A stretch of 64,000 nt of DNA, taken from contig JAUFOQ010000005.1 of NCBI GenBank assembly GCA_040285855.1, forward strand, positions 682,001 to 746,000, given 5' to 3'. Source of the DNA: Eukaryota sp. GEM-RC1 (Eukaryota). The translations under genes and the position numbers were made by a program. Each line of letters opens with the position of its first letter. Position 1 is the first letter of the stretch. The notes beneath the pieces were generated by a model. It saw only the letters and a list, made by a program, of their open reading frames with translations. It searched no databases and was not told where the DNA came from. Shown in pieces: positions 25,957 through 64,000 of the stretch.

Positions 25957-26399
25957 TAAATGTGTGTTCATTGTTATATCTTTTTGACTGGAGAGTGTTT
26001 ATATGGTTTTTTGTGAATAAAACGACATTTTATCATTCGGTTGTTGGAATTGAGGTTGATGTTGTAATCATAGTGATTCTGAAAATGATATCAGAACAAT
26101 TCGTTCTTGAAATTGTTATTGTTCTTTAGCTCTTTACATATCCCACTTTTCTGTATCTACAATTACAGCAACAGCACAGTACCCGTATGCGTAAATCATT
26201 TGTATGTTTTTGCTTATTCATATTTATTTAGGAAGGGTACCTTATTGGGTATCGAATATAATTAATTGTATGCAGATTCTGAGAAATCTGCACAAAGTCT
26301 TAAAGATTTCTCATTCAACAATAAACACATATTTATCCTTTACACTTATCAACGTCGACCTAACAGCAACATTTGTTTGAATCTTTGATTAGCACAGAA

Positions 26400-27060: not shown

Positions 27061-27342
27061 TTGATGCTTTAACAGACATGGTAAAAGCTAATGGTAAAAA
27101 ATTGATTTACAAGGAATAGATTAGTTGGTATTCAAAAGTCTGGCTGTTCAATCAAATAGCTTTACATTATTAAATATCAAAAACAGGGTTTATTATCAAT
27201 ACAGAGAATTATTGCATTTGCAACAATATTAAATAACTAACTGACACTAATTAGAGTATCTGAAGTATCAGATTCTGAACTGCGATTCTTCTGTCCTTCA
27301 ACAAATAACTTGGTGAACTAAAATCGAAATATAATATCTCTG

Positions 27343-27430
27343 TGATACCTGTTGGTGAAAGAGGTAAGATAAAGGTGTTTATAAAGTGAAATAATCCTAC
27401 TTGATACTATACAATTACCTTTGGCTAACA
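27343..27430 (-). repeat. 3' LTR of element 1 (88 bp)
   Basis: TGTTAGCC...GGTATCA, preceded by PPT AAGGAGGAGGAGAGGTAG. Confidence 0.9.
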
Positions 27431-30400
27431 CTACCTCTCCTCCTCCTTGAAGCTCCTTGTTCTCTTAGCCACAGGTGTCTTTATGTTACAGGGTGACTTA
27501 GGATTACTCTTACTACTCGAGGTGCGTTTGAGCTTAGGCTTCTTGTTACTACTATGAAATAAATCTACATTTTCTAATTTACAAAAAATCACTGTAGGCC
27601 TTGGTGTTCTTGATGTCCTTGGTGGGAACCGATGAAGTGTCACCACCAAACCAGAGGACCGTACAGTGTTCACCGTCAGGAGTATTGAACCTGTCAAGGA
27701 TCCTTACAACGATGTGTTCTTCAGAATCCCCTGAAGCAAGTGCTCTGTGGAGATCGTGATCAGCTGGTAGATCTGATTGAAAGATCTTACATTGATGGAT
27801 GCTGGTCTTGCCAACATGACCAGTGATCAGATTCTTTAGAGATACAGAAGATTTCGAATCAACTGATACTACTAGAAATGGTCCAGAGTAATTACCATGG
27901 AGTTTACTAGTTTTGGCGACTTTTAACACAAGATCACCAATCGTAAATGATTGACTAGATTCACGTTTCTTCTTAGGCTTGAGATTTGATTGACGAACCT
28001 CTGCATCTTCTCTCTTTTTGTTAGTCGTTCTAGTTTCATTTTAATGTCGTTAATAAACGGGACATTCTTTGTTGATTTCTCAACAGCATCTAGTAAATTA
28101 CTAGGATCTGCGCCAGGACTTATATCGCTACCGAACATCAGTTCGTAGGGAGTATGTCCAGTAACTGAACTCTTTGTTGCGTTGATTTGCAACTGTACAG
28201 TCGGAATGTATGTTGACCAATTGTCATAATCATTGAAGTCCACGAGGAGACGACGTAGGCTCTGCAGAACGTCTCTGTGACGTCGTTCCACCAGCCCATT
28301 ACTCTGGGAGAAATGAGGAATTGAACGACTTACTTCAATCGCCAGTAGGTTACAAACTGCCTTAAAAATAGCGTTGGCAAACTCGGTACCATTGTCACTA
28401 TGTATACACAACGGTATACCAAAGATAGCGATCACATCCCACACAAGACGATGTGCTACTTCGTTACTGATGAGTTCTTCGAGGGGGCTCAGAATGGTGT
28501 ATCTGGTGAACGAATCTACAAACACCAAGAGGTATTGGTTTCCACTCTGATCTTTTGGAAGTGGACCAATTGTATCGACATTGGGTCTTGCAAAAGGTCT
28601 ATCAGCCCATAGAGAACCCGTCGATTCAATAGTCCTTTTGGGGACAGGTGCCGTTTTCTGACACGCAGGGCATTGCTCGACATGTTTCTTCATGTCGGCT
28701 TTCATACTTGGCCAAAAGTACCCACTATTGCACAGTATGTCCAAACTTTGTTTCTTGTTTGGATGTCCTGACTGGACTAAGCCATGCAGCATGTAAAGAA
28801 CCTTCTTTATCAAGCTAGATGGAATCAAAATCTTGTTCTTGGAGTTGATGTATATGTTGCTCTTCGTACAAAACGTTGAGCCATTGAACAGTTCATCTCC
28901 TTGTTCTATCGCTTTAGTTTGTTCTAACCTTATGGTTGATAGCCAAGAATCAAATAAAGGAAGTTTATTGTCGAATGAGAGGTCACGAAGACACTTGATT
29001 GCTAGCACGCTGGTTATACGTGGAAGCGTCTCATAAATATCTGCGTCATCAAAGCGTAAGCCTTCATAACAAAGGGTTATATCATTTTTTGATGGAAGGG
29101 TTTGATATCGTCAAAGATTTGATTGTTTCAATTGGGCGTCGGTCAATAACACGTGATAACATGTCAGCCCATTGATTGTTTTAACCAGCTACGTGCACTA
29201 TCTCAAAATCGAACTCAGATAAAACTCAGATAAAACGATGGGAATCCATCGTTGTACAATGCGATTCTTCTCTGGAGCTGATATTAGATAAGCTAAGTTC
29301 CTATGATCTGTAAAGATCGTCAAGTGCCTACTTAACAGGAAACTTTCTAAACTAGATTCTGTCAGAATCAAGAGAATGGCATACAGCTCTTTCTGGATAG
29401 CTGACCAATTCTGTTGACTGTCATTGAGTAAACGGCTATAAAAAGATACAGGTCTGACTCTAAGTTCTTCTAACGGAGTACCTGGAGGAGCTGGGGGATT
29501 TTCTTCCAGATCACACCACCAACCGCAATGTTGGATGCATCAGTTGATATGATAATATTCTTATCAGTATTAGGTAAATCGAGTGCCATGTGATCTTTTA
29601 TCTCAGACTTTAATTGTGCAAGTAAAGCATCATGGTCTTTTGTCCAAAGAATTTTCTTGGGTTTTCCACAAGTGAGTTCATTGATTGGGGCAGTCACATT
29701 TGAATAATTCGGAATCCATTCACGAACATAATTTAATGCACCAAGTAAACTTCTTACCTCGGGTAATGTTGAGGGAGCTGGAAGCTCAATCAAAGCCGAA
29801 ACTCTGTTCTCATCAATGCTACGGGTTTTGTTGCAAAAATTGCTGCCCAGAATCTTATTAGGATGTTTTGAAGTGGTGAACCTACACTTCCGTAATCCAA
29901 TCCGTACTCTAATACGTTCTGCTCGTTCCAGTACTAGATTTATTCTTGAAATAAACTGTTCGAAAGTGTCACCTACCACAATTATATCGTCTATATAAAT
30001 GCATACACCTTCCACATCGAATATTTCCATCATGATGTTTTGAAAAATTGCTGGTACGTTTTTCAAACCAAAACATGCTCGTTTGAAGCTAATTGACATT
30101 CCAGGTATAGATACACTGGTCTTCTCGACATCTTTCTCAGCTACCTTTAGCTGCCAGAATGCTTTAGGAAGGTCAAGTGTTCCAATGAAATTTGCTTTCG
30201 AAAGGAACTCTAGAACATCACAGATCCGTGGTAAGTTTGGTTTCACCGGTCTGGTATTAGCGTTAATCCCGTCTGGTCCACTGGAAGTCACCAGTCAAAC
30301 GAGGCTTCTTTTTGTGGTCGTTGTAGACAACAAGCACAATGGGACTACTGAACTTACCAGTCGATGGTACAGCCCATCCTTGTCGTATAAGTTCAATAAA

Positions 30401-31317
30401 ATTTCTTCGGCTATACGCTGTTTTTCAGGGTTAAGCCTTCTAGGAGGACGAAATACAGTGACAGTTTCATCATAAAAAGGGATGGTCATCGGTGGACAAT
30501 CGATACCATCTGGATGTATCTCCTCAGAGAACACTTGTTTGTATTTACTGAGTAGGCTCAGAAGCTCCTTTCTTCTATTAGGGTCATCCAATTCTATCCT
30601 GCAACCAGAGTTGTCAATGATCTCTTCAAATAAACTGATGTCAGTTTGAGTGTTGCCGTACAAATCAATATTTAAATTTATTGTTGAGGAATTTGATTGA
30701 ACACTATTGATTGATTCACATGGTGATTTCATTCTACCATCGAATACACTCTCTGCACTGAGAATAGTGTGATGCTCCTTGTCTAATCTAATGACTAAAC
30801 CATCATCCGTTAGTAATCCCAGTTCTTCTTGTAAGTCTCTGCCTATCATGAGTATTTTGGTACCAGGTACTACTGGGAGAGTATGCTTAATATGAATCTG
30901 GTTAGCTAGACTACCAACGTTGAACGTCAGAACACCTAGTGTACTACCTAAGGATGTTGCACGAATGTTGTTCGCTGAGTTGTATTCAATACAACTGTCA
31001 GTAGTTGTCATCTCACAGTGACGCATTAAATCTTGAGAAATGACTGAGCACGAAGCTGCAGAGTCAAACTCACCAATCACTGGCTCATTGTTAATTAACA
31101 ATCGAATACATAAGGAACCGTTATCCTTTGACTCGATCCCTAGGTTCTGGTTGAGACTGCGAATTGTTTCAACCGATGACGTACTTCTACCCTTGCTTGA
31201 ATGTGTGTTCAAAGCAGCCAATGGGTTCATGTACTTTACTGGTGTAGCGTGTTTTGTGTTGTCAACTGATATTTGAAAAATATAGTTATTCGATTTATTG
31301 TTAAAATTACGATTAGA
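27431..31317 (-). CDS. pol: pol of element 1 (protease, RT, RNase H, integrase, chromodomain-like); frameshifted
   Basis: FDSAASCSVI, LDLPKAFWQ, YIDDI, TDASNIAVGG, GHP..CPAC, VDTIGPLP, SDNGTEF, SNGLVERRH, YSGPF, ILD..VLWFG. Confidence 0.92.
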
Positions 31318-34300
31318 TTAGTCTGATTGATCTCTAAAGCTATCACCGGACCTACGTTTTAGGGGCTTTCCACTTTGGACTCTGGAGGTCATATTGTTCT
31401 TATTACGACGGCACTCAGAGGATAAATGACCTGGTTTGTCACAGTTGTAACACTTAACTGAGGTCTTATCATTTGGGGGGTCATTTCTTCTAGATTGGGG
31501 ACCACGAATTCTAGGTGGGCCATGTCTCATATCACGACGGTTAGCAGGAGGAGCAGCTACAGCAGTAGATCTCATGTAGGTGATCCAAATTCCTTTAACT
31601 TCGTTGAAAAATCGGGGAAGGAGGCTATCATCCGACTTCAGTTTTTGATCCCAACGGACATGTAACTCATTCAGAGTAACAATGTCCTGTTTAGGGTTGA
31701 GAGTGGCCAAGATGATGTCGGCGACTGTTGACGCATGAAGGTGATCCCTATCAGTTGGATCGCTCGAGATGGTGGGAATTGCCATCGAGCTCTTTAGAGA
31801 CCGGATTATGTTGCAGAGATAGTTCTCGATGCATTCAAGGGGGTCTTTAGCATTTCCTAGACGGATGGATTTCAGAGCGCTTGATGCTGCGGTTGTTGAA
31901 AAGAATTGGCTTTTGTCTACTAGCAGTCTCCAGATGGATTGTTCTAGGGAAACAGTATCAGTGTCACCACCAATAGCATCCATCATTTTCCAAGTGGATA
32001 GGGTTGTTTGGTCAATGAAACCACTTACTCCTTCTGGGTCCACTTCACAAAGGGCTGTTCTGGCGAAATCAAATCTGTTCTTGGGTTTGCCAAGCCACAT
32101 GTCGAAGCCTCTGTAAGCTGGTTGTTTCCTTGTATGGACAGCCCAGTGGTTGAAATCATGTAGGAATTTGACCACCTCAGCACGGGTGTCGTTCTTCAAA
32201 AAAGGGCGATGTTTCGAATCTTTCTTTTTGGTTTTTTTGCTTTGGGAGTAACACCAGATGCAAGGATGGTGGATAGACCTGTGCAATCGACTCAGATAGT
32301 CGACTAAGTCGACTCCGCTACATCAGTCGAGTCGAGTCGACTCATCTCTTTCTCAAGTCGAGTCGAGTCGACTTAAATAATGTCTGAGTCGAGTCGAGTC
32401 GACTCAAGTCATATATATTACACTGCATCAAATTACCCTACATGTAGTTTATAGATATCATCTTCCATTAAATAGTTCAATAAAGAATGCTGAAACAACA
32501 CCAATGGTCTTTACTTTCGTCTTTGTTGTATATTTTGAGCAATTAAAGAAATTACTTAAGTGCCTCAAAACCGAAAGGGTGTTCAAGAAGTCAACGAACC
32601 AAGACTACATTGTAGTACCTAGACCACTAATTCCAATTCCAATTCCATGTGGCGATGAACTTTCTCAATACTTCAGTGATCCACTAGCCGTCATAAACCA
32701 ATCCGGTTCTTTGGTGGCACCAAAGTAAAGGCCGCTATCCAATTCTCCGTAATTTGGCTGAAGAATTTTTGGCAATTCAGGCGACCTCACTACCATGTAA
32801 GCGCCTCTCTTCTCAAAAAAAAAGTTATATAGTTTCAAGCAAGCGATGTCCTTTGAGTGACGAAAATATCAGAGCATCTGCATGTTTGCAGTCATGGAGC
32901 ATCTTTCTTGGTGATGAATTTGGTTATAGCTACTTCAGTACTTATACACTTTATTTGTGATGATATACTAATTGCTTTTCTTAAAAAATGTCCTGCATTT
33001 TGCCCGTTTTATAGACGAATGAATTTCAATGAGTGGGCTATAGTTACTGTCGTTACTCAATAGTCGACTCGAGTCGACTCAAAGCCGAGTCGAGTCGACT
33101 CAGATAAATAATTCGTAGAGCCGAGTCGAGTCGACTCAGATAAATTTCTAGTCGAGTCGAGTCGAGTCGTGCACAGGTCTAATGGTGGAATCATGGAGAA
33201 CATTATCAGGGAGTTCATCTTCAGACGAAGAACTTTGATTTAAATGATTTTCGATTGGGAGAGGTGAATCATCAATCACAACCGATTGAGCTTCTCTTTC
33301 TCGCTGACGTTTCTCTTCGGCAATCAGTCTTTCGGTGCATTCCTTTCGAGGGCGTAGAAGTTCTTCTTTAGAGATTACCGACGATTCGGTATTGTTGTGT
33401 GCATCAGCGAAGAATTCTGGTTTGCGATAAACATTTTCATGTTCCATTCGGGCAACATAACGGGGACAAGCTTTCTTTTGGTCCAATTTAGCGGTCGATT
33501 GATCATTACGAGATCTGAAACCGAACGAATCAATTGAGAACCTGTCAACAACTTCAGGATGTTCGATTTCACCTGGAGCAAAGGGGGTAAGTCGTTGAGT
33601 TCGGCTTAGCTCGTCTTGTTTTGGAGTGTCAGTTGAATTCTCACTTAGAGCATCAGCTGCAAGTGGGAGAACTCTCTGAGAGCTACCAATACCTTGGAAA
33701 GGTATGATTCGAGTGGACTCAACATTCGGGACACGAGTAGTCGAGTTTCCGTTTTGGAACGTTGAAACCTGTAAGTGACTGTAATTGTGATTGGGGGACA
33801 ACCACTCAGTACTTATGGCCACGTTGTGATAAATCTGCGACTGGTTATTCAAACAGTGCTGATACCACGCAGTGTACTCATACACCACAGACATACCATC
33901 AGCGTCATACTTTGGCTCAAGAGGTTCAATGATGATCCCATGACGAGGATCCCAAGAGCTGACAGCTGGGTACCTGTAAGTGTCTTCAGACTCCCTGTTG
34001 TACCAACTTCCTAGAAATTGTTCAATAACTTCAGGTGAGGTACCAGGTGGAACGTTGCGCAGAAGATAATGCCTACCTTCTAACATACGGTTCCTGAGTA
34101 CTGGATGCCATGGACGGAACTTTGCTAGGTGCCACATATCAGAGTCAGAGATTGAAACCGTCTGATCATGTGGACTTACCCAAGGAATTCGACTATCAGG
34201 GATGGCATCAGGGTGGAAACCCATACCAACACTCCCGACTTTTCTTTGCACTTCACGAGCACGGTCTTCAGCAGACATTTGCATTCGTTGAATGTTATGT

Positions 34301-34802
34301 TCCTGTTCAGCAAGAAGTTTGTTGTTAACTTCTGCAGTCATGGTCTTACTCTTAGCTAAGGATTCTTCTAAAGACGAATTGCCTTTGCTACTTCAGCTGA
34401 TCTCACAGGAGAAGCTGGAATACTGTCCGATACATTATCTTTATTATCTAAAACTACACTATTTTGAAAAGAGGTACTAAGAGGAGTACCTTGTGAGGAT
34501 ACCTGAGGAGTGGAGGAAACCATTTCTTGGTTAGTTACGGCTGAGAAAGTGGCAGCGTAACGTTGCTGGTAACCTCCAGGAGGTCTAAACTTGTTCAGCA
34601 AAGACTCAATGTCAAAGGCTGAGGAAGTAGAACCTCCTTGACTGCCGCATTCCGTATTGGATGGGGGACTTCGGTTGCCTGACGGATCAGGGCTTACACC
34701 GGATGACGAAGATGATGATGAAGAGCTATCAGAAGCATATTCCGATGAGCTGACTTCCTCAACTTGAGGCCTAGAGTTAATGTCTTGTCGTCTTTTCACC
34801 AT
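31318..34802 (-). CDS. gag: gag of element 1, long N-terminal extension, interrupted by a hAT MITE
   Basis: Zinc knuckle CYNCDKPGHLSSEC; ORFs 34368-34802, 33148-34341, 31318-32286. Confidence 0.8.
32274..33181 (+). mobile_element. Non-autonomous hAT element (GAGTCGACTC family) inserted in gag
   Basis: TIR TAGACCTGTGCA; perfect 8-bp TSD ATGGTGGA; dimerisation-domain remnant AEEFLAIQATS. Confidence 0.93.
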
Positions 34803-34816
34803 AAGACAATAATTAT

Positions 34817-34904
34817 TGATGCCTGTTGGTGAAAGAGGTAAGATAAAGGTGTTTATAAAGTGAAATAATCCTACTTGATACTATACAATTACCTTTGGCT
34901 AACA
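34817..34904 (-). repeat. 5' LTR of element 1 (88 bp)
   Basis: TGTTAGCC...GGCATCA, followed by ATAATTATTGT. Confidence 0.9.
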
Positions 34905-35237
34905 TCTGCATGGAAAGAAACAGTGCAAACTTTAACCTACTCAACCAAAAAATTTTCATTGAATACTTTTCCATACCCCGAACACAATTTTCCAAAAGCA
35001 ATTCAAAAGATTTGTGTAGCTGGATCATCATTACCGTATAGCGACATTGGAAATGGTTGGAACACAAATGAATTGTATCTTCAACATTCAGTTGGGTAAT
35101 TAAATGACAGTATTTTGTATTTTTTGCTTTTTAAGCTACTTCACGCGCAGTCGTTGTTAGGTTTTTGGAAACTGACCTTGAATTACAAGGAGAAACATTG
35201 GGTGTATTTGGTGTGGATAAAGAATTAAGGTGGATTT

Positions 35238-35790: not shown

Positions 35791-38607
35791 AAACCGATTG
35801 CTGTAAATTCATCTTGTTTCTAATTTATAATCTTTCATTTTCTCCAAACAGAAACCTTGATGACAGATCAACTTCACCTCAAGCAGTCACACTTCCTTAA
35901 AATACGACGCTGCTACGTGACAGACTTCTTCAATGCCAACAAGAAGAACTCTTAACAGATAGTGTCATTGTCTTTCAAGGTGAACGTTGCTCTTTTCATT
36001 CTTCTTATCTTGCTTCTTTCAGTAAAGTCTTGCAGACTAAGTTCAATACTTCATCCACCGAAGTTGTCTTTCCCGAACTTGAAGCTTCTGTTTCTGATCC
36101 TGATTACTTCTTCCAAGTATTCCAATACTTCTATGGACATCCTTTGCATCTCACCGTTCAAAACGTGGGCATTGTTCTTTCTCTATGTTCTTCTCTTCAA
36201 CTTGAGTTGTTATCTCAATCTATTCATGAGACAATGAAAACAGGATTGGATTTATCAAAACCTTTCCAACTACAGTTAGATTCGAATGAAATTGTGACCA
36301 TAATGAGTTCAAATCTCCAAAGAGATGTCGTTCTAACTTATTTAGATGAAGAAGAAGTCGTCATTAGTTCAATATGTTTAATTTGTTGTTCAAACACATT
36401 TAAACATCAATTCTGCTCTAACTTTGCTGATCATTCCCTTCGAAAGTTCTCTTATCATGACGAGTTTGTTGGAGTTACTGGTGAAGAATTTCAATCTTTC
36501 TTTGGTTCTTTTACTGGTAAATCAATCATTCTTAACTCAGACAATGTCGTGAGTTTTTATCAACTTGCAGTCTATTTTCAAGTAGAAGAGGTAAAGAAGG
36601 AATGTATTGGGTTTTTAACTAGAGTAAGTGATGAATCTGAATTGATACAGATTCTTTCAACGGCTGCTGTAAGGCATTTGTTTAATTTTCTTTTAGATTT
36701 CAGTGGAATTTTAAAAAGCTGGCTTCTCCAATCAATTTCCAACCGATTTCCTTGCCTCCAAACTTCTTTTCATGTCTTTTGCCTAATGTTGATAATTGTT
36801 GGTTAATTAAATGTTTAGTACTTACTGTTCAGAATACTCCAGAAGATCAGTTGGATACCTCTGAAATACTACGAATTTTAAATTTGTTTGAGGTAGATCC
36901 ATCAAACATTAGTAAAGTGTATCTTGCTGCAAAAACTTTATTTCAATTAAAGTTGCTTCAAAATATACTTTTTGATTGGTCTATGATTGTTTTACCAACA
37001 ATTTCTCCTGACAAAATACCTGGTAAATGGTTCTGCTGGTGTTTTGTCTTATTTATTCGAAGTTTTCACAGACTGTCAAGGTACTTCAATTTTTTCATCA
37101 AACTTTGGTACAATTGTTACTGTTATTCGTCTATCCGCAATTGTGTTAATTCCTGAAGTTTTCCAAAGTTTAGCATCAAGTCTACCTTCGGATTACACAC
37201 TATTCCTACTAAAATCACTAATTGCTTCCTGAAAGTCTTCTGAAGTCTCTAATTTTTGGTCTGTTGAAGACTTTGTCAGTTGTCTCTCAGCTTTAAATAT
37301 TGATTCAAATCCAATTGAGTTTTTAAATGTAATAACCCCTTTATGTATTGATCAGAGATAGAGGTGGGAATTACTCGAGTAATACTCGAGTAATACTCAC
37401 TGTTTTGAAAAAAGTGAGTACGAGTATTACTTGAGTACTTGAGTAAAAGTCTTGAGTAGTACTCGAGTAACACTAAAGTAATACTTGAGTATTACTCAAT
37501 AATGAATGATATCGAAATAAATAGTGTTTATATATCATCCAAACTATAACAACTCCAAGAATGTAAGTTCAAAATAGATTGTACACTCTCAACATTCAAA
37601 CTAGCGCGTCTAGGGTTAACTACATGGCCTGCACGTGAGAATAGGGATTCCGTAGCTACAGAAGAAGGCTGAACACTCAGAAAATCTTGCGCAGCTTTAC
37701 TAAGTACAGGAAAACGATCTGACTCACTTTCCCAGAAAGCAAGTGGGTCCGGCTGAATATCAAGAATTGGATGATCTTGAAAGCCTTGAATCTCTTCCTG
37801 CAGATTACAGAATCTACTTCTTTTTTTTGGCTTTTAGTTCGTTGAGCAAGCGTCTTCTTGGACTATGGCAAGCTTCTTGTTCGTTTGGTTCATTTCTCTG
37901 CATTTCTACCATAACATTGTTCATACTTGACTGCTCTCCATCTCGGTCATCGCTCTCTTTCTCTTCTGTACCATATTTCGTTCTCACGAATTGTTCGAAT
38001 GTAGAAACATTGCTTACATACTTCAATTCATCTGGAATTACATTCAGGTCTACTCTGGGATCTAAAAAGTGCAACCATACGCAACCCAATCGTAAAACTT
38101 ATGAGAATAGTTTCCCAGCTTCTCCATAATCACTTGTCCTGCTTCTCGTATCCATTGACTTTCATGTTCATCATCAATAATCTTATGGATCTTTTTCAAA
38201 ATTAAGTCGAACATTAAGTATCCAACTCCTACAACAGAATACTTTGAAGCGGACACAGTTTCTGTGAACTCATCAAAGTCAATAAGAAACTCAACTAGTT
38301 TCGTCAAATCAGTTTTTTCAGACATACTGAGTGCTAGTCGAGCCATGTTGTGTTCGAGAAGTGTATGTTCAATAGCTTCAATTAGATCAAGATATCGTTC
38401 CGCCATTCTACAAGTGGCGTTCCAACGTATGGCTATGTCTTGGGGCACAGAATCGGCTTTGATGTTCAGCAATTTACACTTTAATCTTAGGGTTTGACTC
38501 ACAGTCGTCGACCTATGAGAAATCACTACAAATTCTCGTACTTTTGCCAGTATATTTGAGATGGTCTCTGAGCTTAAAGCTTTTTTGACAAATAAATTGA
38601 CTATATG

Positions 38608-38684
38608 TGTTAGTGTAATGACTCATCAGGACCTTTATCCTTAAATAAATTCACTTTTCTCTATTCATATGACTAAGACCAACA
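38608..38684 (+). repeat. 5' LTR of element 2 (77 bp)
   Basis: TGTTAGTG...GACCAACA, followed by ATAATTATTGT. Confidence 0.92.
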
Positions 38685-41030
38685 ATAATTATTGTGGCCT
38701 CTGCAAAGAGTTGCAATGTATGTGTACTCCGGAGAACTTCACTCCTGGAAACCAAACTAACCCAAACCCTAGTTCCGTTCTAGGTGAAGATTCCAGTTCC
38801 GCCCTGGCTTCTTCCAAGTCTTCCACCGTGAAGGAACTTGGCCCAGATGGACTCCCCTTGGGATGACACTGTGGACTATGACATTGTTTCGGATGAAGAA
38901 CCTTCTTCTAATGGAACTTCGAATGAGAAACCATTCTCTATCGAAAACTCAAATGAGGATCCATCCCCCAATACAACTATAAACGAGGAACCTTCCTCCA
39001 ATATTGTCGAAAATGAGGAACCATCCTCTAATATTGATGAAAATGAGGAACCATCCTCCAAAGTTAATGAAAACGAGGAACCATCCTCCAATAGAACACC
39101 TGCTTCTAAGTCAAATCCACCAGTTGGATGGACCTATCGACCTTCGGTAACTCCTCCGCCTATCCCAATAGTACAGAGATCTACACCTCCTATTAGGACA
39201 CCGGAACCCTTTATTCCGAAATTACCCCCTACACCGTTAGGTTTCGTAATGCCGTCTAAAGATCCACGAGCACCTCCACCTCTACACGCTGAGAGTCCCT
39301 GGAGAGAGCTATGGAATGCCGATGTGAAGATGTTTGGGTCTATTGATAAAGATCAATGGATTCACTTTCAAAGACAATCAAGAAACAATTCTGAGTCTTA
39401 CGGTTTTGTAGAGACAGACCAGTATCTACTTAAACCAGCCAGAACACTAAAAAGATATTGGCAACGGATATATCCCCCTCGACCCTGAGGTTTCGTACAT
39501 CCATGACTGTAACGACAGATTGATGGGCTTTATAATGGATAAAACTCGTCCAAACTCCCTCGTTACTGTGGAACAAGCTTACAACCTCCTACGGAATCCA
39601 CTTCCTAAAGATCAAGTAGAGGCGATCGAAAAACAAGTAGACAACCTCGAAAGATACACCACGGTGAACAGCTTCTTCCATAGAAAACCAACGGTCAATA
39701 CCGACTCCGCGGATACAGTTCCTCCCTTGGTAGCCAACACTCCTTATGTGCCCGGCGGATTTGTTTTTGCAAGAAAGCCCCACGCACCGACCACCCCACT
39801 TCCCAACGAACTTCCACATGACCACATGCTGGAAGAGGACCACACTGCTACCAGAGTTGGAGCCCTATCGGTCTCACCTGAACCGGTTACTCCAACTCAA
39901 TCCAGCTCCAACAGTCCCAACACTGACGTAATCACACCGTACTCAGTACTGAAATTCGCTGAACGGTTACCCACTGACTCCTCCAGTGATTTGAACAAGT
40001 TGATGAAACCGAAATCACTTCACAATCTGGATGACGTTGACGTAATCATTAATTGGATTGCTGAGTACATGAGCTTCTGTACCGCCCAGAAGGACTATAC
40101 ACTACCAGCATCCTCACCACTCGGAGATCCCAAATACTTCTTTGACATTGGTAGGATTGCTGCCAAGGAAGCCGACACTCGTTGGGTCTCTCGACTTGTT
40201 GCGTATCCGGTTCAACAACAGATGAACTATCTAGGTACAGCAACGACTTCCAATGATGAACTCTTCCGACAGATCATCTTAAGAACCCAATTTAAGGACA
40301 TCTTGACCGCAAGAAATAAACTAAACGAAGTTCAGATGAACTGGTCGATCCAAGATTATGAACAAAGATGGCTCGACTTCATCAAACGATTTGATAAAGT
40401 GCTTAACCGAAGTACACTGATTAAATCCTCCTCGGAACCGTCCTACACGATGCTGGACGAAAGAACTATCATCAAAGCTCTTTTGACCAACATTGGTCTC
40501 GCCTCCCTCTACCTAGAACTCTGGCCCAAATGGAAAGACTCCAAGGATTTACACTCCTTCTTTCAACAGTCCTCGAACACTATTACCAATGGTGCAAGAA
40601 ATGGACAAACGGTCCCACACATGTTCAACTTGAACAAAAGAACGTGGAAATTCTCATGCACAGAGACAAGGATTCCTGGAACGACATCCCAAAAGCAATC
40701 CAACGCTCAGCATCCAAAATTTTCGCCCCAGGAAATTTGAAGTCTAAATCATCTTCAAAGAACCCTCACAATGCAGCCCCTCCTTTCAAAAAAGAAGCAT
40801 CGCTCAAACTCATCTGATAGACCTCCTAAGGATGATAACTGCTGTAGCTTTTGCGACTCCCCGGATCACAAGATAAACCTTTGCAATCATCCTGACTGTC
40901 GTAGAAGCGAGCTCCCCGCGGATCAACGTCTTCCACGATCTGAGGCAAAGAAACCTGCCACTCGTAGTCATAGTTCGCGTAAACAAAATAAACATAGTAA
41001 GTATTTCGTGCAATCGATAAACACTATTCA
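38669..41030 (+). CDS. gag: gag of element 2; frameshifted, start uncertain
   Basis: Knuckle CSFCDSPDHKINLC; LGDPKYFFDIGRIAAKEAD resembles element 1 gag LGKPKNRFDFARTALCEVD. Confidence 0.75.
38981..39094 (+). repeat. 30-bp in-frame tandem repeat (NEEPSS-xxx-E), about 4 copies plus degenerate upstream units
   Basis: AAA(C/T)GAGGAACC(T/A)TCCTC repeated every 30 nt. Confidence 0.85.
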
Positions 41031-44000
41031 CAATGATAACACATCATCGTCGGATTCACATAATCCATACATAAACCCACTCCACAACATCAGTAATTCG
41101 AGTGGTACGAACTCACTAAGCCTGAATTCAATATTCAGCATAATCGATCACCAGGATCCACCACCATTCCTCAGCTGCAGTCTGACCATCAATGGTGTTT
41201 CGATCCAGGGTCTTTGGGACAGTGGAGCATCAATGTCCGTAATCACACGAGACCTGGTCGATAGATGCTCAATGAAGTTCATTAACAAGAACGTACCATT
41301 CACATCTGCAAACAACGTCAGGTCTCACTCACTGGGTAGCGCCCAAGGGATCTTGACCTTCAAGTTCAGTAAGGTGACACACCTAACATCTGTGACGAAG
41401 ACTTTACCTATCATCCCTGGATCCAACAAATGTTTGTTAGGTATTGATCTCATGAAGCAGTTGGGTTTACTGACTGAAGAGGGACTAATCATCCCGGTTC
41501 AACAAACTATGATAGCTCAGAGTAACGACGAGTCTGAGTTCGACTCCAACATATCTATGCCCAATAGCCTTTCTGTTATAGACAATATAGATTTCAATAA
41601 ATTTGTTTATGATTCCGGTTGTTCAATCACATTAGATGACGATGACAGAACCAATGAATTACTGAATCTACTCAATGAGTTCTCAGTCATTTTCGATTCC
41701 GTTCCCCACAAAGATGGCATCGATTGTCCACCGATGACAATTGACTTCTACGACGAAGAGTCCACGGTGAAACGAAAACCTCGGAGGCTTAATCCAGTCA
41801 AACAAAGGATAGCCAAAGAAACTTTTCATGAACTAGTACGTTTGGGATACGCTGAGTATACTACACCCAACGGAAAATTCAGCTCTTCGGTAGTACTTGT
41901 GGTCTACCCCGATCACCGTAAGCCTAGACTTACTGGTGACTTCAGTGGTACTGGAGGAGTCAACGAACTTACTAAACCGGTCCAACCGAATCTACCGAGA
42001 ATCGCAGACATACAGGAATTCCTGAGTGAAGCTGACTACATAGCCACTCTCGACCTGCCAAAAGCATTTTGGCAACTGAATCTGCGGATCACGAACGCGA
42101 CAAGACAACTCTAGTCATCCATGGCCTAGCCATTCGATTCAAACGAGCTTGTTTTGGTTTGAAGAACGTACCAGCAATCTTTCAAAACTTAATGATGGAT
42201 ATTTTCGACCACGAAGGAATATTCATCTACATCGATGACATCATCATAGTCGCCAAAACTTTTGATGAATACTTATCTAGAATAAAATTCGTTCTTGAGA
42301 GAGCCCAACTCTATAGAGTCAACCTTGGCTTACACAAGTGCAAGTTCATAACAAAGAATCATCCCATAACTATCTTAGGTTGCGAATACATCGACAACAC
42401 TCGTCGAATCGATTCAAAACGCGTAGAAGCTCTAGTAAACATACCAACACCGACCACCATCAAAGAAATTCGAAGTTTCGTCGGTTCTATCAACTACATT
42501 AAAGATTTCATAGCAGATGCATCGGACCTACTAGCTCCCATAATAGCCCTAGTAAAGAACAAAGCACGAACAGTTCATTGGACACCTCAACTTCAATCAA
42601 ATTTTGATGAAATCAAAAGAGGATAATCAATCACATGCCACTATGTCTACCAGACAAAGACAGACGCATACTGATCAGCGCAGACGCTAGGGATATCGCC
42701 GTAGGTGGTGTCGTCTGGCTAGAATGCACCCCTCATTCACCTGAGGGAACTCCACTGAACGACCGCAAAGTAGAACCACTTGCATTCTACAGCAAACTAC
42801 TCACTGACTCTCAACAGAACTGGGCCACAATTCAAAAGGAATTGTACGCCATTCTCCTGATATTAACAGAATCTCAACTGTCGTCGTACCTTATCAGCAG
42901 GGAACTAACGATCTTCACTGATCATAAGAACCTCGCTTACTTAATCTCAGCACCTGAGAAGAACAGGATGGTCAAACGATGGATCCCTATTCTCAGCGAA
43001 TACCTATTCACCATAGTCCACACCAGTGGCGAAGACAACCATTGGGCTGACATGATGTCACGCAATGTTATCCAAGACGCAACAACTGAGTCTATAAACA
43101 ACATAGTCACATATTGCCCAGAGCATTTGTTCTCTATAACCGATAGCCGATGTCCTACTGATGAGGATACGGATTATCAAACTTTATCAACAGAGTCAAT
43201 CGACATGATTGACGATGCCCTGATCAACAAATTGAAGTTATTCGACGCTTGGCTTTCGAAAGTACGCTCTACACAAGTAGAAGCCATCAAAAATAACGAT
43301 ACATTGTTCCAACATCCGTCTACTTGGTTTAATGAAGAGTTCCAGCTATACATGAATAGCAACAACAAGATCTTGATACCAAGTGCCTTGGTGAAAACCA
43401 CCCTGAACCACTTACACGGTTTTCCACATGTAGGTCACCATAGCATTAAAGATAGCATTGATCGGCTAAAATCTAGTGACTACTTCTGGCCCAGCATGAT
43501 CAACGACATGAAAACTCACTGCAAGCAATGTCCAGCTTGTCAAAAGACAGCTCCCCCTTGCCAAAACAACTATCAAATCTTCAGGTAATTTGTGGTCCGA
43601 CAAACCATTTGCAAAGATGAACGTCGAAACTATAGGACCACTTCCCACTGACACATCGGGAAACATTTACTTACTAGTGTTCATAGATTCCTTCACCAGA
43701 TTCACAATCCTATGTCCACTAAAGGAACTGAATGCTCATGAGACAGCATATTCGTTAGTGTGTAACGTTTGCGCCATCTTCGGCATTCCAGATCTCATTC
43801 ACAGTGATAATGGCAAAGAATTTGCTAATCACGTTTTCAATGACGTCTGCAAGCAATTTGACATCACAACTAATAAATCTATACCTAGTTTCTCTCCTAG
43901 CAACGGTTAAGTTGAACGTCGACACAGAGACATTCTACAAGCTTTACGAAAGATGCTCATAGACTTCAATGACTATGACAACTGGAGTAAATACATCCCA

Positions 44001-44787
44001 CTAGTACAACTGCTGGTAAACACTACGAAGAGTAGAGTAACCGGCTTTACACCGTACGAACAGATGTTTGGATCTAACACCAACCCTGATAGTGATCCAA
44101 GCAAAATCATCTCTTGCCTCACTCAGAACAAGATTTCAGAAGATTCCTTTCTAGCTGATTACCAATCAAAATTAACAAGAATTTTGGAAAAAACGGGAAG
44201 AAGCAGAAACCACCCAATCATCTATCAAATCTTCCATTACTACAGTCGATACACCCTCGCTATTCGCTATCGGTGACTTAGTACTACGAAGTAACAAAGC
44301 AGCTAAGAAGCTTCATGGCAAACAAGAGGGACCGTACCTCGTAATTGATATACCTTCCAAAAGCTCACTTGAACTGCAGAACTTTGTCACCGGACATCGC
44401 TTCCGCTCCAGCATTCATCTATGCACCAAGTACCTTTCCGACAAACCCTCCTCTGATGAGTTCCACAAAGCAGTAGCATCTTGTGACTCTGAAGAGATGG
44501 TCATCATCGAGATCCTTGATCAACGTGATTCACCTACAGGTCCCATATGTTCCGTCGTATGGTTTGACGGCGATACTACTGAGGAAACTCTAAGTCTGGT
44601 TAAGAACACTAAGGCTTACTCAAGTTTTATTAAACTAAATCCTCACGCCAAACCCAAATCTAAACCCAATACTAAATCTAGAAGTACGCGTAATAGAAAA
44701 GCGATCCCTAGTAACACTCCTAATTCTGTCATTCACACTACTCCACCTGCCAAGAGGACTAGGTCCTCGAGAAAGGAGAAGAAGTAA
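41031..44787 (+). CDS. pol: pol of element 2 (protease, RT, RNase H, integrase, chromodomain-like); frameshifts and stops
   Basis: WDSGASMSVI, LDLPKAFWQ, YIDDI, ADARDIAVGG, TDHKNL, CPAC, SDNGKEF, EILD..VVWFDG. Confidence 0.92.
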
Positions 44788-44864
44788 TGTTAGTGTAATG
44801 ACTCATCAGGACCTTTATCCCTAAATAAATTCACTTTTCTCTATTCATATGACTAAGACCAACA
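44788..44864 (+). repeat. 3' LTR of element 2 (77 bp)
   Basis: One mismatch to the 5' LTR; followed by TSD TATG. Confidence 0.92.
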
Positions 44865-47800
44865 TATGACATAGACAAAAATCTTGATGAACAGTACTCA
44901 AGAAAGAACGAGGAATGTTGAATGCCTTGCCAATGTTGGCAGCATTGTCTGTCGTCACAGTCAGCACTTTTTCTGCAATTCCGAATTCTTGTAATACTTT
45001 AGTTACAACAGCATTTACTTGATCACCAGTATGAGGATGTTCGAAAAGATCTACATTCAGCACTATGGAATGGAATTGGAAATCTTCTATAAAATGGCAG
45101 GTGATTCCAAGGAATGGAAGTCGTTGCCTTGAGGACCAAAGATCAAGAGTAAGATTGATTGCATTTGGTTTTTTAAGGAGAGAGATTATGTGGGATTTCT
45201 GATGTGTGTAGTTTTGAATGATACGGCTTCTTACAGTTTTTCGACACGGTTGTGCAATCTTAGGTGATATGAAAGTCAAAAGAGCTCGCAAGATACTGGA
45301 CTCGGCAAAAGTGAAAGGCAAGTGATCATGAGTAACGAAATCCTCAATAAGTGAGACAACATAATTTATCTGCCCTGGGGAAAGTTCTAAGTTCAAAGAA
45401 GGTGGAACAGCAATAGGTGCATTACTGTCCAAAGCGACCTGTTTTTTGTTATCAGAGGAAAAGAGGCTATGGTCATTTTTCAGGTGCTTCTTCAGAACGT
45501 TGTCTGATGTCCTCAAAGAGAACGTTGTAGAGCAACCTTGAAAAGAGCATTCTCGTCTCTGACACTCGATCCCATCATCAACGAGGGTGACTACCGTAAA
45601 ATAAGACTTGACGGTACGGTTGGTCATGAGAGTTAAAAGATGAAGTTATATGTTTATATTCACTATTTAGAAAGTAACTATCTCCAGAAAGTAACTCTCC
45701 AGTGCGAATATAAATGTAACTTAAAACACAATAGGTGCAGTTCAGCTCTATCGTCATTACTGCTTTCTGAAGTATCACTGATTTGAAAAAGCGAGTATGA
45801 GTATTACTCGAGTAATACTCAGGATTTATTACTCATTACTCTACTTGAGTAATGACTAAGTATTACTCGAGTAGAGTAATTTCCCGCCTCTAATCAGAGA
45901 CTTCAATCTTTCTTGAATAACTATATTTCAATTAATTCAGTAAGAATTATGAGTAATCAGAATCAAGAAATTTCAAATTTGAGGAGTGGAATGGTTAAAA
46001 CTCAGGACTTCTTCCAGAAACAACTCCAAATTCATACCGATTATATCAATAATCACTTAGACATGGAATCTGATTGAATTCATTACATGCACCAAATTGA
46101 AAAGGAAAATTCAAAACTCAAAAGTGAATGGAGTGAAGCACGGACAAACTTTCAGAAACTACTCAAAGCTGAAACTCAATCTCTTAAAGAACAATTTAAC
46201 AATATGATCACTGCACAGACGTATCTCGATCAACGGTTAACTGCAGTTTTAGATTATCTCAAAAACCAATCAGTTAACATCAAGCAATCGTTTGTGGATC
46301 AAATCAAGTCAGAACGGTACTATCAAAGCCAACAGTTAGCAAAAGTTGAGAAAACACTTCATCATCAACTTTTGTCTGAAAGTGACCATCATAATGGACG
46401 GCTATCGCGTTTTACTAAAGAACTTCACAATGTGCAGGAACGAATTTACTGTAGAGAAGATGTTGTCACCCAAAAGTTTGCTAAAGTAGAAGAAACACTT
46501 AAGAATCACATCAAGTCTGAACAAGATAGATTTGATCGACGCATAGTTACTGTCAAACAATCACTTCAAGCTAAACTTGAGTCTGAAAGGGATTATCAAA
46601 ATGAGCGGTTAACTCCACTTACGATGGAAATACAAACACTACAGAATGACACCAGCGTTAGACAAAAAATTGTCAACGAAAATTTTGTTAAAATGCAAGA
46701 ATCAATTCAGAATTTCATTAAGTCTGAGCAAGATGATTATGATCGACACGTAGTTGCTGTTAATCAATTAATACATAGTGAAATTGAGTCTGAAAGGGAT
46801 TATCAAAGTCAACAATTAGCTAATGTTGAAAAATAAATTCAGGCTCAATTGTTGTCCCAAAGAGAACACCAAAATGAGCGATTAGCGCCACTTACGAATG
46901 AAATTCAATTACTGAAAACGAAAATCAGCTCCGGACACAGTACTACCAACAAACAGCTTACTGAAGTTCGTCAATCGATTGATCTAAAAGAACAGCAGAG
47001 ACTTTCCATCAAGAATCAACTTCAGTCACTTCAAAATCAAATCACAGTTCTTAAAGCACATGTTGATCAGGAATATTTGGTAAGTGAAGATCAAATTGGT
47101 TTGTTTGATGCTGCTATTTGTGGATCTAATTTGTTCCTCTCCAGTGATTTTGTGTTGGTTCAAGCAAAATTCGGTGACCAATTTTATTGTAATAATTTTG
47201 TGGCAATTCCACTTCTTGATCATTTTAAAGTTAAACTGACTCTTGTCAGTGGTGATGGACAAGCTTTTCTTGGATTTGTTACCAGCAAAAGTCCGCAAAG
47301 CCGTGTTCTGGAAATGTGGATTGCGACCGATGGATCACGTAGATCTGAAACACTGTTTTCCCCGTCAAAACCAAACTTTCCGCCATTACCAAAGGGTGTT
47401 ATATTATAATTGAGTTTGCAAACGGTAAAGCGATATTCACACCCTCAACCTCACAAATGGCCTTTTCAACTCCAATATTACCAGGCTGTGTTTTTGGTTT
47501 GAAAACATACACTGCTGAACAAACATGGCGACTCCAACGTGTTTGATTTACATTGTTTTTTCTGCCAATAAATGTTCTTGATGTTTGACAGTAACTCACT
47601 GTGATTATGTCCATTAATTCTATACGAACTCATGTACACCAATTTTGGCCAGAGGACCACTACCTGCTGAACAGATGCTAGCTTTATAATGAACATATCG
47701 AGAATCTCCTAAAGACGGTTCATTTACTGCCAAAAGAATGGACGATGAAGGACAGTTGGCCACATTGCTGACTCAGATCGATATGTATGTTGTACTGGTT

Positions 47801-51324: not shown

Positions 51325-52518
51325 TAGATCTATGATTCCCTTGCAGCCGGCTGAGCCCCGGTCTCTATTAAGCCGAGCTGAGCCCAGGCCGACGCCGGCC
51401 TATCTTTTTTTCTATGAGCCGTAATCTAGGCCCAACTAATTTACAACTTGCTAAATCTATTACTATGATCACAGAAATATAAGACTAATTGTTGTATAGG
51501 GACAATTCTCGTGTTGATGTGGAGAATTTAACTTCTTTCATTTTCTGAATTAGTATGTAATAATTTATTGTTGCAAATAAACTCTTTATAATTGTATTTA
51601 AATAAAGTAATTTAGAAATTCACTACAATACAACTTCATCGTTCTCGTTCTGAATTGATGTAGAAAAACTTAACTGTGTTTGTTTTAAGACTTTCTTTTC
51701 GATCTTATTCTCCCGCGGTTTAATAGAGACTTTAGTCCAATGAGAGACCTAATTGTTTCACGATCCAAATTCCATCTTCCATGAATCATGTGGCCAACCA
51801 CAGAAAATAAAGACTCACAAGCAACAGAAGAAGCAGGACTTGCAAGGAACTGTCTTGCAACTCGGCTCAAATTCGGATACTTTTCGTTATTGCACTTCCA
51901 CCACAAGAGTGGATCTGAAGCTGAAACTCTTTCATCAAGATATCTATCAAGCTCACTCTTGTTTTGGTCCACGATCTCACACTCTTCTTCTCTAACAGCG
52001 AGTGATATTTCTGCAAAATTGTCATCTTCTGAATCTGATGCTGCTTGATCGCCTGTCGACGGTACTTCTGCAGCTGGTGTGGAATTTTCCGATGTATCAA
52101 TCATACTAATCAACTGCTCCCAGTGCTCTTCTTTGTCTAAGACTGCAAACTCTCTAAGCATATTGTTTTTGTAGCGAGGATCAAGCAAAACTGCAGCAAA
52201 GGCAACATAGTCGGTAAAGTATTTCTGAGACTTAATCAATCTATCGAACATCAATTTAGCAGTCGTTTTGATCCAAATATCTTCAGAATTGTTGTAAATA
52301 TCTTTGAACGTATTTAGCAAAGAATCAAACAAAACGAATCCACTGCAAAACTTCTTCTTGTTTGTTATTTTAAAAATCAAAATAAAAGCACCAACAAATG
52401 TTACAATTTATTATTGGACTTTCGGCGTTAAATTTGGCCTAGCACGGCTTAGGCCGGCCTAAAAAGTTTTTGAAATCTGTAAGAAGGCTTAGGCCGGGCC
52501 GTAAGGGTATCATATCTA
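51325..52518 (-). mobile_element. Internally deleted hAT element retaining the transposase C-terminus (ORF 51685-52380)
   Basis: LLDPRYK, ELDRYL, DPLLWWK, YPNLSRVARQFLASPASSVACESLFS; imperfect TIRs with GGCC-rich subterminal repeats; no clear TSD. Confidence 0.8.
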
Positions 52519-52703: not shown

Positions 52704-55005
52704 ATGTCTGAGCCTACTTGTAACATCCATACTCTTAGGACAACGCTTCTCCGTGACAGACTTCTCCAATGTCAACAAGAAGAACTCTTAACAGATAGTG
52801 TCATTGTCTTTCATGGTGAACGTTTCTCTTGTCATTTTTCTTATCTTGCTTCTTTCAGTAAAATCTTACAGACCAAGTTCAAAACTTCATCCACTAAAGT
52901 TGTCTTTCCCGAACTTGAAGCTTCTGTTTCTGATGCTAATCTCTTCTTTCAAGTATTCCAATACTTCTATGGACATCCTTTGCATCTCACCGTTCAAAAC
53001 GTGGGCATTGTTCTTTCTCTATGTTCTTCTCTTCAACTTGAGTTGTTATCTCAATCTATTCATGAGACAATGAAAACAGGATTGGATTTATCAAAACCTT
53101 TCCAACTACAGTTAGATTCGAATGAAATTGTGACCATAATGAGTTCAAATCTCCAAAGAGATGTCGTTCTAACTTATTTAGATGAAGAAGAAGTCGTCAT
53201 TAGTTCAATATGTTTAATTTGTTGTTCAAACACATTTAAACATCAATTCTGCTCTAACTTTGCTGATCATTCCCTTCGAAAGTTCTCTTATCATGACGAG
53301 TTTGTTGGAGTTACTGGTGAAGAATTTCAATCTTTCTTTGGTTCTTTTACTGGTAAATCAATCATTCTTAACTCAGACAATTTCGTGAGTTTTTATCAAC
53401 TTGCAGTCTATTTTCAAGTAGAAGAGGTAAAGAAGGAATGTATTGGGTTTTTAACTAGAGTAAGTGATGAATCTGAATTGATACAGATTCTTTCAACGGC
53501 TGCTGTAAGGCATTTGTTTAATTTTCTTTTAGATTTCAGTGGAATTTTAAAAAGCTGGCTTCTCCAATCAATTTCCAACCGATTTCATTGCCTCCAAACT
53601 TCTTTTTGCCTAATGTTGATAATTGTTGGTTAATTAAATGTTTAGTACTTACTGTTCAGAATACTCCAGAAGATCAGTTGGATACCTCTGAAATACTACG
53701 AATTTTAAATTTGTTTGAGGTAGATCCATCAAACATTAGTAAAGTGTATCTTGCTGCAAAAACTTTATTTCAATTAAAGTTGCTTCAAAATATACTTTTT
53801 GATTGGTCTATGATTGTTTTACCAACAATTTCTCCTGACAAAATACCTGGTAAATGGTTCTGCTGGTGTTTTGTCTTATTTATTCGAAGTTTTCACAGAC
53901 TGTCAAGGTACTTCAATTTTTTTTCATCAAACTTTGGTACAATTGTTACTGTTATTCGTCTATCCGCAATTGTGTTAATTCCTGAAGTTTTCCAAAGTTT
54001 AGCATCAAGTCTACCTTCGGATTACACACTATTCCTACTAAAATCACTAATTTTTTCCTGGAAGTCTTCTGAAGTCTCTAATTTTTGGTCTGTTGAAGAC
54101 TTTGTCAGTTGTCTGTCAGCTTTAAATATTGACTCAAATCCAATTGAATTTTTAAATCTAATAACCCCTTTATGTATTGATCAGAGACTTCAATCTTTCT
54201 TGAACAACTTTATTTCAATTAATTCAGTGAGAATTATGAGTAATCAAAATCAAGAAATTTTAAATTTAAAGGGTGAATTGATAAAAACAAGGAGCTACTT
54301 TAAGGAACAACTTTTGGCTTATAGGGATTATCACAAAAACAATTGGCCAATGTTGAACAATCATCTCAAAGTAAGATCAATGCTGAACGAAGTGATATTC
54401 TTTGCCAATTTGCCATTAGCCAGAACGAAATTAAGTCTGCACAAGATTATCATAGTGATCAACTGATGTCTTTTCAGAGTCAAATCAAGACTCTTAGTGA
54501 CAAAGTTAACCACAAGTACCAAGAGAGAGAAGTAGGTAAGTTTGATGGAGGAATTTGTGGATCCAATTTATTTCTTTCTGGTAATGAAACGGTGGTTTCC
54601 TCTTCAATGGATACTGTACATGTAGCTCATATAGAATGTAACAATTTTGTAGCAATTCCTTTAATTGATGGCTGCAAGATTAAATTGACTCTTCTTCGTG
54701 GTAATGGGTCTGCCCACCTTGTTTTTGCTAATAGCAAAAAGCCACAAAGTAGCAGTTATCTGATGTGGTTAGACACTAGTGGTACACGTAGGTATGGCAC
54801 CTTTTCTCCTCCAGAACCAGGTTTTCCTCCAATCACGGGAGGGTGTCACTTCACCATTGAATTATTTAAAGGACGGGCGATAATATGTACCCCTTCAACA
54901 TCAAACTCTCCGTTTTCAACTCCAGTTCCTGAAGGTTTTGATTTTGGATTGAGAATACATTGCATAGGTCAGAAATGGAAGTTGGAACGGGTATGTTGGT
55001 TATAA
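52704..55005 (+). CDS. BTB protein, copy 3 (BTB-BTB-helical, coiled coil, SPRY-like); frameshifted
   Basis: ORFs 52704-53633, 53588-54466, 54343-55005. Confidence 0.85.
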
Positions 55006-56527: not shown

Positions 56528-56607
56528 TGTGGTCTTAGTCATATGATTAGAGAAATGTGAGTTTATTACATTAATAGGTCCTGATGAGTCATGTCATGAC
56601 ACTTACA
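56528..56607 (-). repeat. Solo LTR-like copy related to the element 2 LTR
   Basis: Minus strand TGTAAGTGTC..ATGACTCATCAGGACCT..TTTCTCTAATCATATGACTAAGACCACA; no TSD seen. Confidence 0.8.
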
Positions 56608-63309: not shown

Positions 63310-64000
63310 TTGTCTTAATGTGAATTGCGTGCGAATGTTTCTAGCTCAATCAATCAATACCATCGTCTGTAGAGAAACGACATTGATCTTCATTGATCTT
63401 ACACCATTGATTACTTTTATGGTAATGCCTTGTTGTATAACCTGAAATGATATCAGTGGTATTATGACAATTGTGTTGCAGATTTTATGTGTAAAGTATA
63501 ATTCCGTGATCATATTCTAGATTAGAGTTGTCAAATGATTTACCTCAAGCCGTGTTCTGAGAATGACTTGATAAAAGTACATACAGTATTAAGAAGCAAT
63601 TATATAAGATGATCGAGTACATATCGTAAAACTATTTAAATCTAACTAAAGACTGTTAAAAAAACTATCTATCTACTAACTCCCCATTTCAACAAGTAGG
63701 TATTATCGAACAGCCTGGCCAAAATCAATGGTCTTACAGCTGAAAAGTCAAAAAGCAAACGTACTCGTCCAGTACTACATGTTGAACATCTTACTCACGT
63801 CTGAACGTAAATAACAAAGTCTTGGTTTTTACTGCCGTTTCACATCGTTGTATACTTATGTTATCATACATATGTTTTAAGACATGGCCTTTGCTGATGT
63901 GGGTTTCCTATACTACTCTGAAGTAGTCACTTACTCGTAAAAGTATGCAGAAATAAGTATACGTTTCACCATCATTAATACCAACAGAAACCAAAAATTG

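Follow-up and report, generated by a model that had tools for sequence, protein, structure and literature searches.

The mode of priming is a defining trait of retroelements, and the modes established so far are priming by a host tRNA, either complete or as a half, and fold-back of the Tf1 type. Tf1 primes with the 5′ end of its transcript, which pairs in cis with a non-palindromic primer-binding site (PBS), and retroviruses carry a dimer initiation site, a short palindrome able to extend to a longer duplex. Cleavage of an RNA duplex by RNase H to give the self-primer is established for Tf1 (PMC4600332, PMC6317226), and the accessible text of a plant survey names tRNA, half-tRNA and self-priming only, with palindromes unmentioned (PMC6317226). 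The fungal GalEa Ty1/Copia elements have no PBS and carry a Conserved Hairpin Site made up of a palindrome and a second arm, for which, according to the authors, there is no fitting model (Donnart et al., 2017; PMC5445492). The GalEa site is cited in the accessible part of a bivalve TRIM paper, which offers no mechanism there (PMC6934838). In the literature searched, to which most subscription papers and Repbase did not belong, no Gypsy element with a palindromic PBS was found described.

The window, a stretch of DNA of 64,000 nucleotides analysed as a whole, holds two divergently oriented LTR elements, both decayed, of the short-LTR Ty3/Gypsy kind, each with 4-bp target site duplications (TSDs), LTR ends TG..CA and a polypurine tract. 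Element 2 (38608-44864, plus strand; TSD TATG at 38604-38607 and 44865-44868) has 77-bp LTRs (5′ LTR 38608..38684; 3′ LTR 44788..44864, 1 mismatch), the first of which includes the gag start codon (ATG at 38669) together with a TCACT motif that is Inr-like. Its gag-pol (38669..44787; protease, RT, RNase H, integrase) is broken by stops and frameshifts and terminates in a polypurine tract followed by a TAA that doubles as the pol stop codon (44769..44787). Element 1 (34904-27343, minus strand; TSD CAGA at 34905-34908 and 27339-27342) has 88-bp LTRs (5′ LTR 34817..34904, with no internal ATG; 3′ LTR 27343..27430, 1 mismatch), a broken gag-pol (27431..34802; zinc knuckle, protease, RT, RNase H, integrase) and a polypurine tract followed by a TAG that doubles as the pol-frame stop codon (27431..27448). 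In both elements the bases separating the polypurine tract from the 3′ LTR are thus a T-A-R stop codon (44785-44787; 27431-27433). The LTR pairs are near-identical, yet the coding regions are full of frameshifts and stops, and sequencing error in the assembly is possible. TGTTAG, TCACTTT and CCAACA are common to the LTRs of both elements, and TCACT stands at LTR positions 42-44 in elements 2 and 1 (38651-38655; 34859-34863), a possible transcription start that we take to resemble a metamonad initiator motif. The gag of element 1 is interrupted by a dispersed, MITE-like repeat of ~850 bp with AGTCGACTCG-rich ends (32308-33165), found again in inverted orientation at 9750-10594. Elsewhere in the window, hAT transposase remnants (dimerisation domain; weak DUF659) lie at 51688-52407 and 44848-45645, both on the minus strand, the latter directly adjoining the 3′ end of element 2, and a five-copy gene family occupies 24344-25958, 35893-37378, 52729-55013, 56752-59075 and 61215-63326, with a BTB/POZ domain in the three copies scanned.

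Both elements were assigned to Ty3/Gypsy (Metaviridae) by the domain order protease-RT-RNase H-integrase and by an RT nearest to Ty3, the best solved structural relatives being Ty3 7q5b and 4ol8. They are related to one another, with pol 40-57% identical in amino acids over most HSPs and ~66% in nucleotides. Structure prediction gave the integrase tail an SH3-like barrel and, behind it, a chromodomain-like domain (element 1, 27582..27725, minus strand; Z 7.1, rmsd 1.3 Å over 45 residues against the Chd1 chromodomain), the Z score being middling and below the level excluding a common fold; the tail had no Pfam chromo match and no Foldseek match at E 0.001. The closest proteins (up to 96% identity) came from Eukaryota sp. 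GEM-RC1, then TZLM1-RC and TZLM3-RCL. Skoliomonads, including GEM-RC and TZLM3-RCL, are free-living metamonads of soda lakes (10.1101/2023.05.03.539051), and the host is likely a skoliomonad metamonad; the text examined of that genome preprint mentions neither retrotransposons nor LTRs. In quick trees that held no named references, the skoliomonad elements formed a clade with support 100 on a long branch, apart from two Pfam-chromo proteins (P0202 and P0235 in the protein tree and L072 in the locus tree were dropped as too short). Kuafuorterviruses were considered as a lead and dropped, and Troyka, an atypical Gypsy-like group, was set aside for its CG..CG ends and 3-bp TSD, compared with TG..CA and 4 bp here (PMC12440569).

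We numbered the bases after the LTR +1, +2 and onwards, and those at the LTR end -1, -2 and backwards. Both 5′ LTRs end in CA and continue directly with ATAATTATTGT (CA-ATAATTATTGT, LTR end at the hyphen), and these ends are fixed independently of the palindrome, since the 3′ LTR followed by the TSD defines each of them. A first-pass annotation of this DNA had described a perfect 14-bp palindrome across the LTR end of element 2 and the identical 13-mer in the same register in element 1. The palindrome of element 2 was confirmed as ACAATAATTATTGT (38682..38695, plus strand; ACA-ATAATTAT-TGT), and the 13-mer CAATAATTATTGT occurs at both junctions and nowhere else in the window, where shuffles gave 0.01 expected matches; the palindrome of element 1 is only 12 bp long (34807..34818, minus strand; CA-ATAATTAT-TG), because the T at -3 stands opposite a T at +11. 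The 14-bp form is thus confined to element 2, and the conserved unit is the 12-bp palindrome CA-N8-TG (38683-38694 in element 2). Perfect palindromes of at least 12 bp number 35 in the window and are unremarkable in themselves; what counts is the position and identity of this one. A lone LTR (56528-56607, minus strand) that is 92% identical over 38 nt to the LTR of element 2 has TG..CA ends, no internal part, no matching TSD and no palindrome after its CA.

A TGG 0-5 bases after the LTR end, as expected of tRNA-primed elements, is missing from both elements, and none lies within 10 bases; the first TGG stands at +16 in element 1 and at +11 in element 2, and the earlier statement that both lack a TGG-initiated PBS held. 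Nor was any tRNA or Rfam family found within the window. The first-pass annotation had also named the U5 end plus the PBS itself as the only complement of the PBS. This stands for full Watson-Crick complements of the 11-mer, which were found at the junction alone (11/11 in element 2, 10/11 in element 1), and has to be qualified for element 1, where a further 10/11 complement with 3 G-U pairs lies near the LTR start; it is absent in element 2. A Tf1-type complement (at least 10 bases of the 5′ LTR, at the transcript 5′ end, against the PBS) was not found in element 2 and is not common to both LTRs, and the claim that the LTRs hold none was borne out apart from that single G-U-bearing site. We consider it quite improbable that a host RNA primes, be it half of a tRNA, severed in its anticodon loop, some other small RNA, or a full-length tRNA bound to a TGG located further along. 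Half-tRNA priming exists, +7..+9 could formally pair with an anticodon and T+11 is retained in element 1 though unpaired, but the two elements diverge after +11, and half-tRNA priming is confined to Copia lineages in the plant survey (PMC6317226).

In element 2 the ATG inside the LTR is in frame with gag and the protein starts MTKTNNNYC, as do its relatives, and the gag gene models of related families likewise start inside the LTR and read across the junction, so that the junction is encoded by the first residues of such proteins. A gag start inside the 5′ LTR was seen in many skoliomonad families (P0031, P0190, P0248, P0210, P0237 and others), and intact single gag-pol ORFs of 1,860-2,540 aa exist among them. 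In the families of element 2 and P0031 the gag N-terminus carries a C-x2-C-x4-C pattern (window 38669-38730), the first Cys of which is encoded by the palindrome. The sample comprised 290 skoliomonad-type element proteins, five non-skoliomonad cluster members having been dropped beforehand, and the 89 N-terminal-most fell into 27 groups. A peptide compatible with CA-N8-TG was present within the first 30 residues in 18 of the 27 groups, compared to 2.3 expected from a background rate of 140/41,583 positions (binomial p 1e-13, the groups not being independent). Sixteen of the 18 have it at residues 5-13, as NNNYC, NNDHC, TIIIG, SIRIG, TVITG, TVITV, TVRTG or SLING; one copy reads NNTYC and is probably a single damaged copy. 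The remaining matches, SDASV at residue 17 (an internal start) and QYVL (in a third frame), are likely due to chance and were excluded from the 16 groups used for covariation. Nine of the 27 groups have no compatible peptide, which is what one would see if the start codon lay past the junction, as it does in element 1, and equally if the site were absent. Among 28 further lineage representatives, mostly fragments and some apparent gag starts of basal families, there were no matches, and representatives from outside the lineage matched at background level (5/111).

Across the 16 groups, as read from protein sequences, the bases forced by the genetic code appear to covary at +1/+8 (A-T in I..I, G-C in V..T, T-A in L..N), at +3/+6 (A-T in NNNYC, G-C in NNDHC) and at the central pair +4/+5 (A-T for I; C-G for R, if CGN). 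Matched changes thus fall at three of the four inner pairs, the central pair among them, in a back-translation of gene models that leaves wobble bases unseen and gives LTR ends by inference only. A+7 and G+10 are forced in 16/16 groups and T+2 in all 13 in which it is visible. Six core classes occur among the skoliomonad families, and hybrids joining the halves of different motifs were compatible in only 8/30 cases. The conserved unit is 12 bp, since -3 and +11 are often unpaired across families. Both the conservation and the compensatory changes for which the first-pass annotation had proposed a search were thus recovered, the former in related proteins and the latter, for the central pair, also in metagenome DNA.

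These data leave hardly any credit to chance, shared ancestry or a coding constraint on the gag N-terminus, an account already largely refuted. In its favour, palindromes rich in AT abound in the window, the elements are related to each other and gag of element 2 reads through the site. The same core, however, is non-coding in element 1 (first ATG at 34802-34800), gives NNNYC in element 2 and, in a different frame, TIIIG in another species, and therefore protein coding does not hold it; matched changes and the strong positional enrichment also speak against this account. Against a host RNA, every core variant would need its own host RNA, itself self-complementary by chance, and covariation would not be expected of spacer bases that stay unpaired. 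One fixed host primer is further argued against because it would restore one sequence per cycle rather than six symmetric ones. In favour of a host primer, a TGG at +9..+11 is compatible with 11 of the 13 groups in frame 1, and a canonical CA-N-TGG site further on is formally possible there.

No skoliomonad-lineage DNA was found in the metagenome, viral or prokaryote contigs searched, and we scanned metagenomes with a neighbouring Gypsy group, keeping the best 80 of 244 matches, equal to 79 loci (L001, one weak viral-contig match from the neighbouring-group scans, was excluded from the counts). Of 197 perfect palindromes of at least 12 bp in these loci, 33 lay before the first long ORF, in 2.95% of bases (p 1e-15, the loci not being independent); such a zone exists in 63 of the 79 loci, several of which are near copies of one another. 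Opening at CA or (C/T)A was seen in 29/33 palindromes inside the zone compared to 52/164 outside it. A second LTR places the LTR end exactly at the palindrome in L011 (CA-CTGATCAG TG), L018 (CA-GTGTTAACAC T) and L059 (TA-ATAGTTAACTAT T), and L031 has a 10-bp palindrome at its LTR end. L071 has a canonical TGG site, L029 has neither palindrome nor TGG site, and many of the 79 loci with terminal repeats have no palindrome near the repeat end. Four loci of one subtree (L005, L013, L018, L022) differ at the central pair only (AT, AT, TA and CG, respectively), which gives matched changes in DNA. L011 (155-166), L012, L014 and L015 form a Gypsy-type family with a junction core identical to that of GalEa Copia, CTGATCAGT. 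Three registers, with 8, 10 or 12 bases between the LTR end and the complementary T, occur on several deep branches, and one fixed cut geometry therefore does not cover all loci.

Covariation at +4/+5 calls for two molecules, because adjacent bases cannot pair within one strand; +3/+6 enclose two bases only, which makes that pair impossible within one strand as well. RNA folding predicted the palindrome alone at 0.0 and -0.5 kcal/mol as monomer compared to -11.0 and -13.0 as dimer, in agreement with the first-pass suggestion that two RNAs could pair through it. For element 1 the best predicted dimer takes the form of an extended duplex with its centre in the palindrome (-39.2 compared to -33.2), which is surrounded by an extended imperfect inverted repeat and placed in the 11-nt loop of a predicted U5-leader stem (34776..34861, minus strand; z -4.06, in a window chosen after a first look). 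The leader of element 2 has no significant fold (z 0.12), and in unconstrained folding the dimer predicted as best for the full 79-nt leader avoids the palindrome; a predicted duplex centred on it (-27.1) still beats two monomers (-21.6).

A different reading would have the palindrome, a longer U5-leader hairpin or a GalEa-like hairpin cut and extended within one RNA, as fold-back self-priming in cis. The inverted repeat of element 1 and the conserved second arm of GalEa fit this, and the 3′ half of the palindrome can fold with downstream sequence in both elements, in hairpins that are weak and differently registered from that of GalEa. We regard this reading as distinctly unlikely: central pairs covary though this is impossible in a hairpin, the monomer hairpin is worth next to nothing in predicted energy, element 2 lacks a significant fold, and a search for a GalEa-like conserved downstream hairpin in the back-translation of the 16 groups did not beat the null (Fisher p 0.33).

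Pairing between two molecules is favoured because the matched changes reach the central pair, and covariation up to that pair points to the partner genome as primer. Our preferred explanation, to which we give slightly better than an even chance, is that CA-N8-TG replaces the tRNA PBS, and that two genomic RNAs pair at it and one is cut and used as the minus-strand primer. The two packaged RNAs would form the predicted duplex at the palindrome, one of them would be cut, likely by the RNase H of the element as reported for Tf1, and its 5′ fragment would then prime minus-strand DNA synthesis on the partner. The palindrome sits where the 3′ end of the primer must lie. Our best guess for the cut is after the invariant A+7, where the resulting CA-N-T end would mirror A-R-TG after the polypurine tract (T-A-R-TG stands there in both elements). 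The first-pass annotation had placed it after +8, which would give a blunt CA end; +7, or possibly +6, seems to fit the ends at least as well. Were such a primer copied during plus-strand synthesis, the 3′ half would be rewritten in each round as the complement of the 5′ half, and matched changes would then arise by the mechanism itself. Counting against this explanation, nothing obvious would halt plus-strand copying on a primer made of the element's own, unmodified RNA.

A palindrome serving dimerisation alone would yield the same covariation. If it were a dimerisation or packaging signal only, like the retroviral dimer initiation site, with priming by some other, traceless means, the two-molecule pairing would be explained equally well; the palindrome of element 1 lies in a loop closed by a predicted stem, the placement expected of a kissing loop, and the GalEa authors made the same comparison (PMC5445492). 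This is nevertheless unlikely in our judgement, as the palindrome is locked to the LTR end, the place of the primer 3′ end, in every case with a defined end, and no other primer site is present. On another account the symmetry serves the DNA stage, either as the site of a protein dimer, for instance integrase, or by making plus-strand ends self-complementary for second strand transfer or for forming the ends. The perfect Watson-Crick symmetry opening at the terminal CA and the central-pair covariation are compatible with it, but the sequence of a protein site would be expected to stay constant, whereas there are six core classes, and minus-strand priming would be left unexplained; we hold it to be improbable.

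If priming by the partner RNA is true, the element would be independent of host tRNAs, and an account would be at hand for the GalEa site, so far unexplained, and for many elements whose annotation gives no PBS. Priming in trans, if it holds, would be a new priming mode. The broader proposal, which we put at somewhat less than an even chance, is of a third general mode beside tRNA and Tf1 fold-back, in which the RNAs dimerise and prime in a single step and the site restores its symmetry by itself, used by broad, overlooked Gypsy lineages of microbial eukaryotes and, convergently, by GalEa Copia. For annotation, the signature is a palindrome of 10-16 bp that opens with the CA or TA at the LTR terminus.

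Among the known systems, the half-tRNA Copia lineages (Osser, Bryco, Bianca, FunCo1, fungal Helenus) resemble the elements described here in having no TGG directly after the LTR, but their PBS matches the anticodon arm and is not self-complementary (PMC6317226, PMC10886601, PMC5445492). The retroviral dimer initiation site is likewise a short palindrome, although the hairpin loop is only predicted here, in element 1 (PMC5445492); it is separate from and additional to the tRNA PBS, whereas here the palindrome occupies the PBS position. The Tf1/Sushi/Tcn1 chromoviruses share with these elements the Ty3/Gypsy affiliation and the lack of a tRNA site, and the chromodomain-like fold predicted for the integrase tail here would be a further likeness (PMC4600332, PMC6317226). 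In them the element's own RNA is the primer and RNase H the cutter, as is likely for the present elements, but their complement is borne by the LTR in cis, while here the sole partner is the junction itself. The nearest parallel is GalEa, which also has no tRNA PBS and a palindrome that includes the LTR-terminal A and is centred between +4 and +5; its junctions (A-CTGATCAGT or A-CTAATTAGT, LTR end at the hyphen) have the same T+2 and A+7, with G/A and C/T swapping at +3/+6 (PMC5445492). A palindrome in the same register is thus already in print, and novelty is lower than the first-pass annotation implied. GalEa differs in being Copia with a 10-bp palindrome, compared with 12 bp in elements that are Gypsy by domain order, and in its conserved second arm, which complements +1..+9 except for an A/A mismatch at +7 and for which we found no counterpart here. 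It also has only two main variants, the AT-rich one in low-GC families (20-43% compared to 33-55%), and since the two variants track GC content the swap may reflect RIP mutation and not selection. The exact GalEa core is nevertheless carried by a Gypsy-type element, L011.
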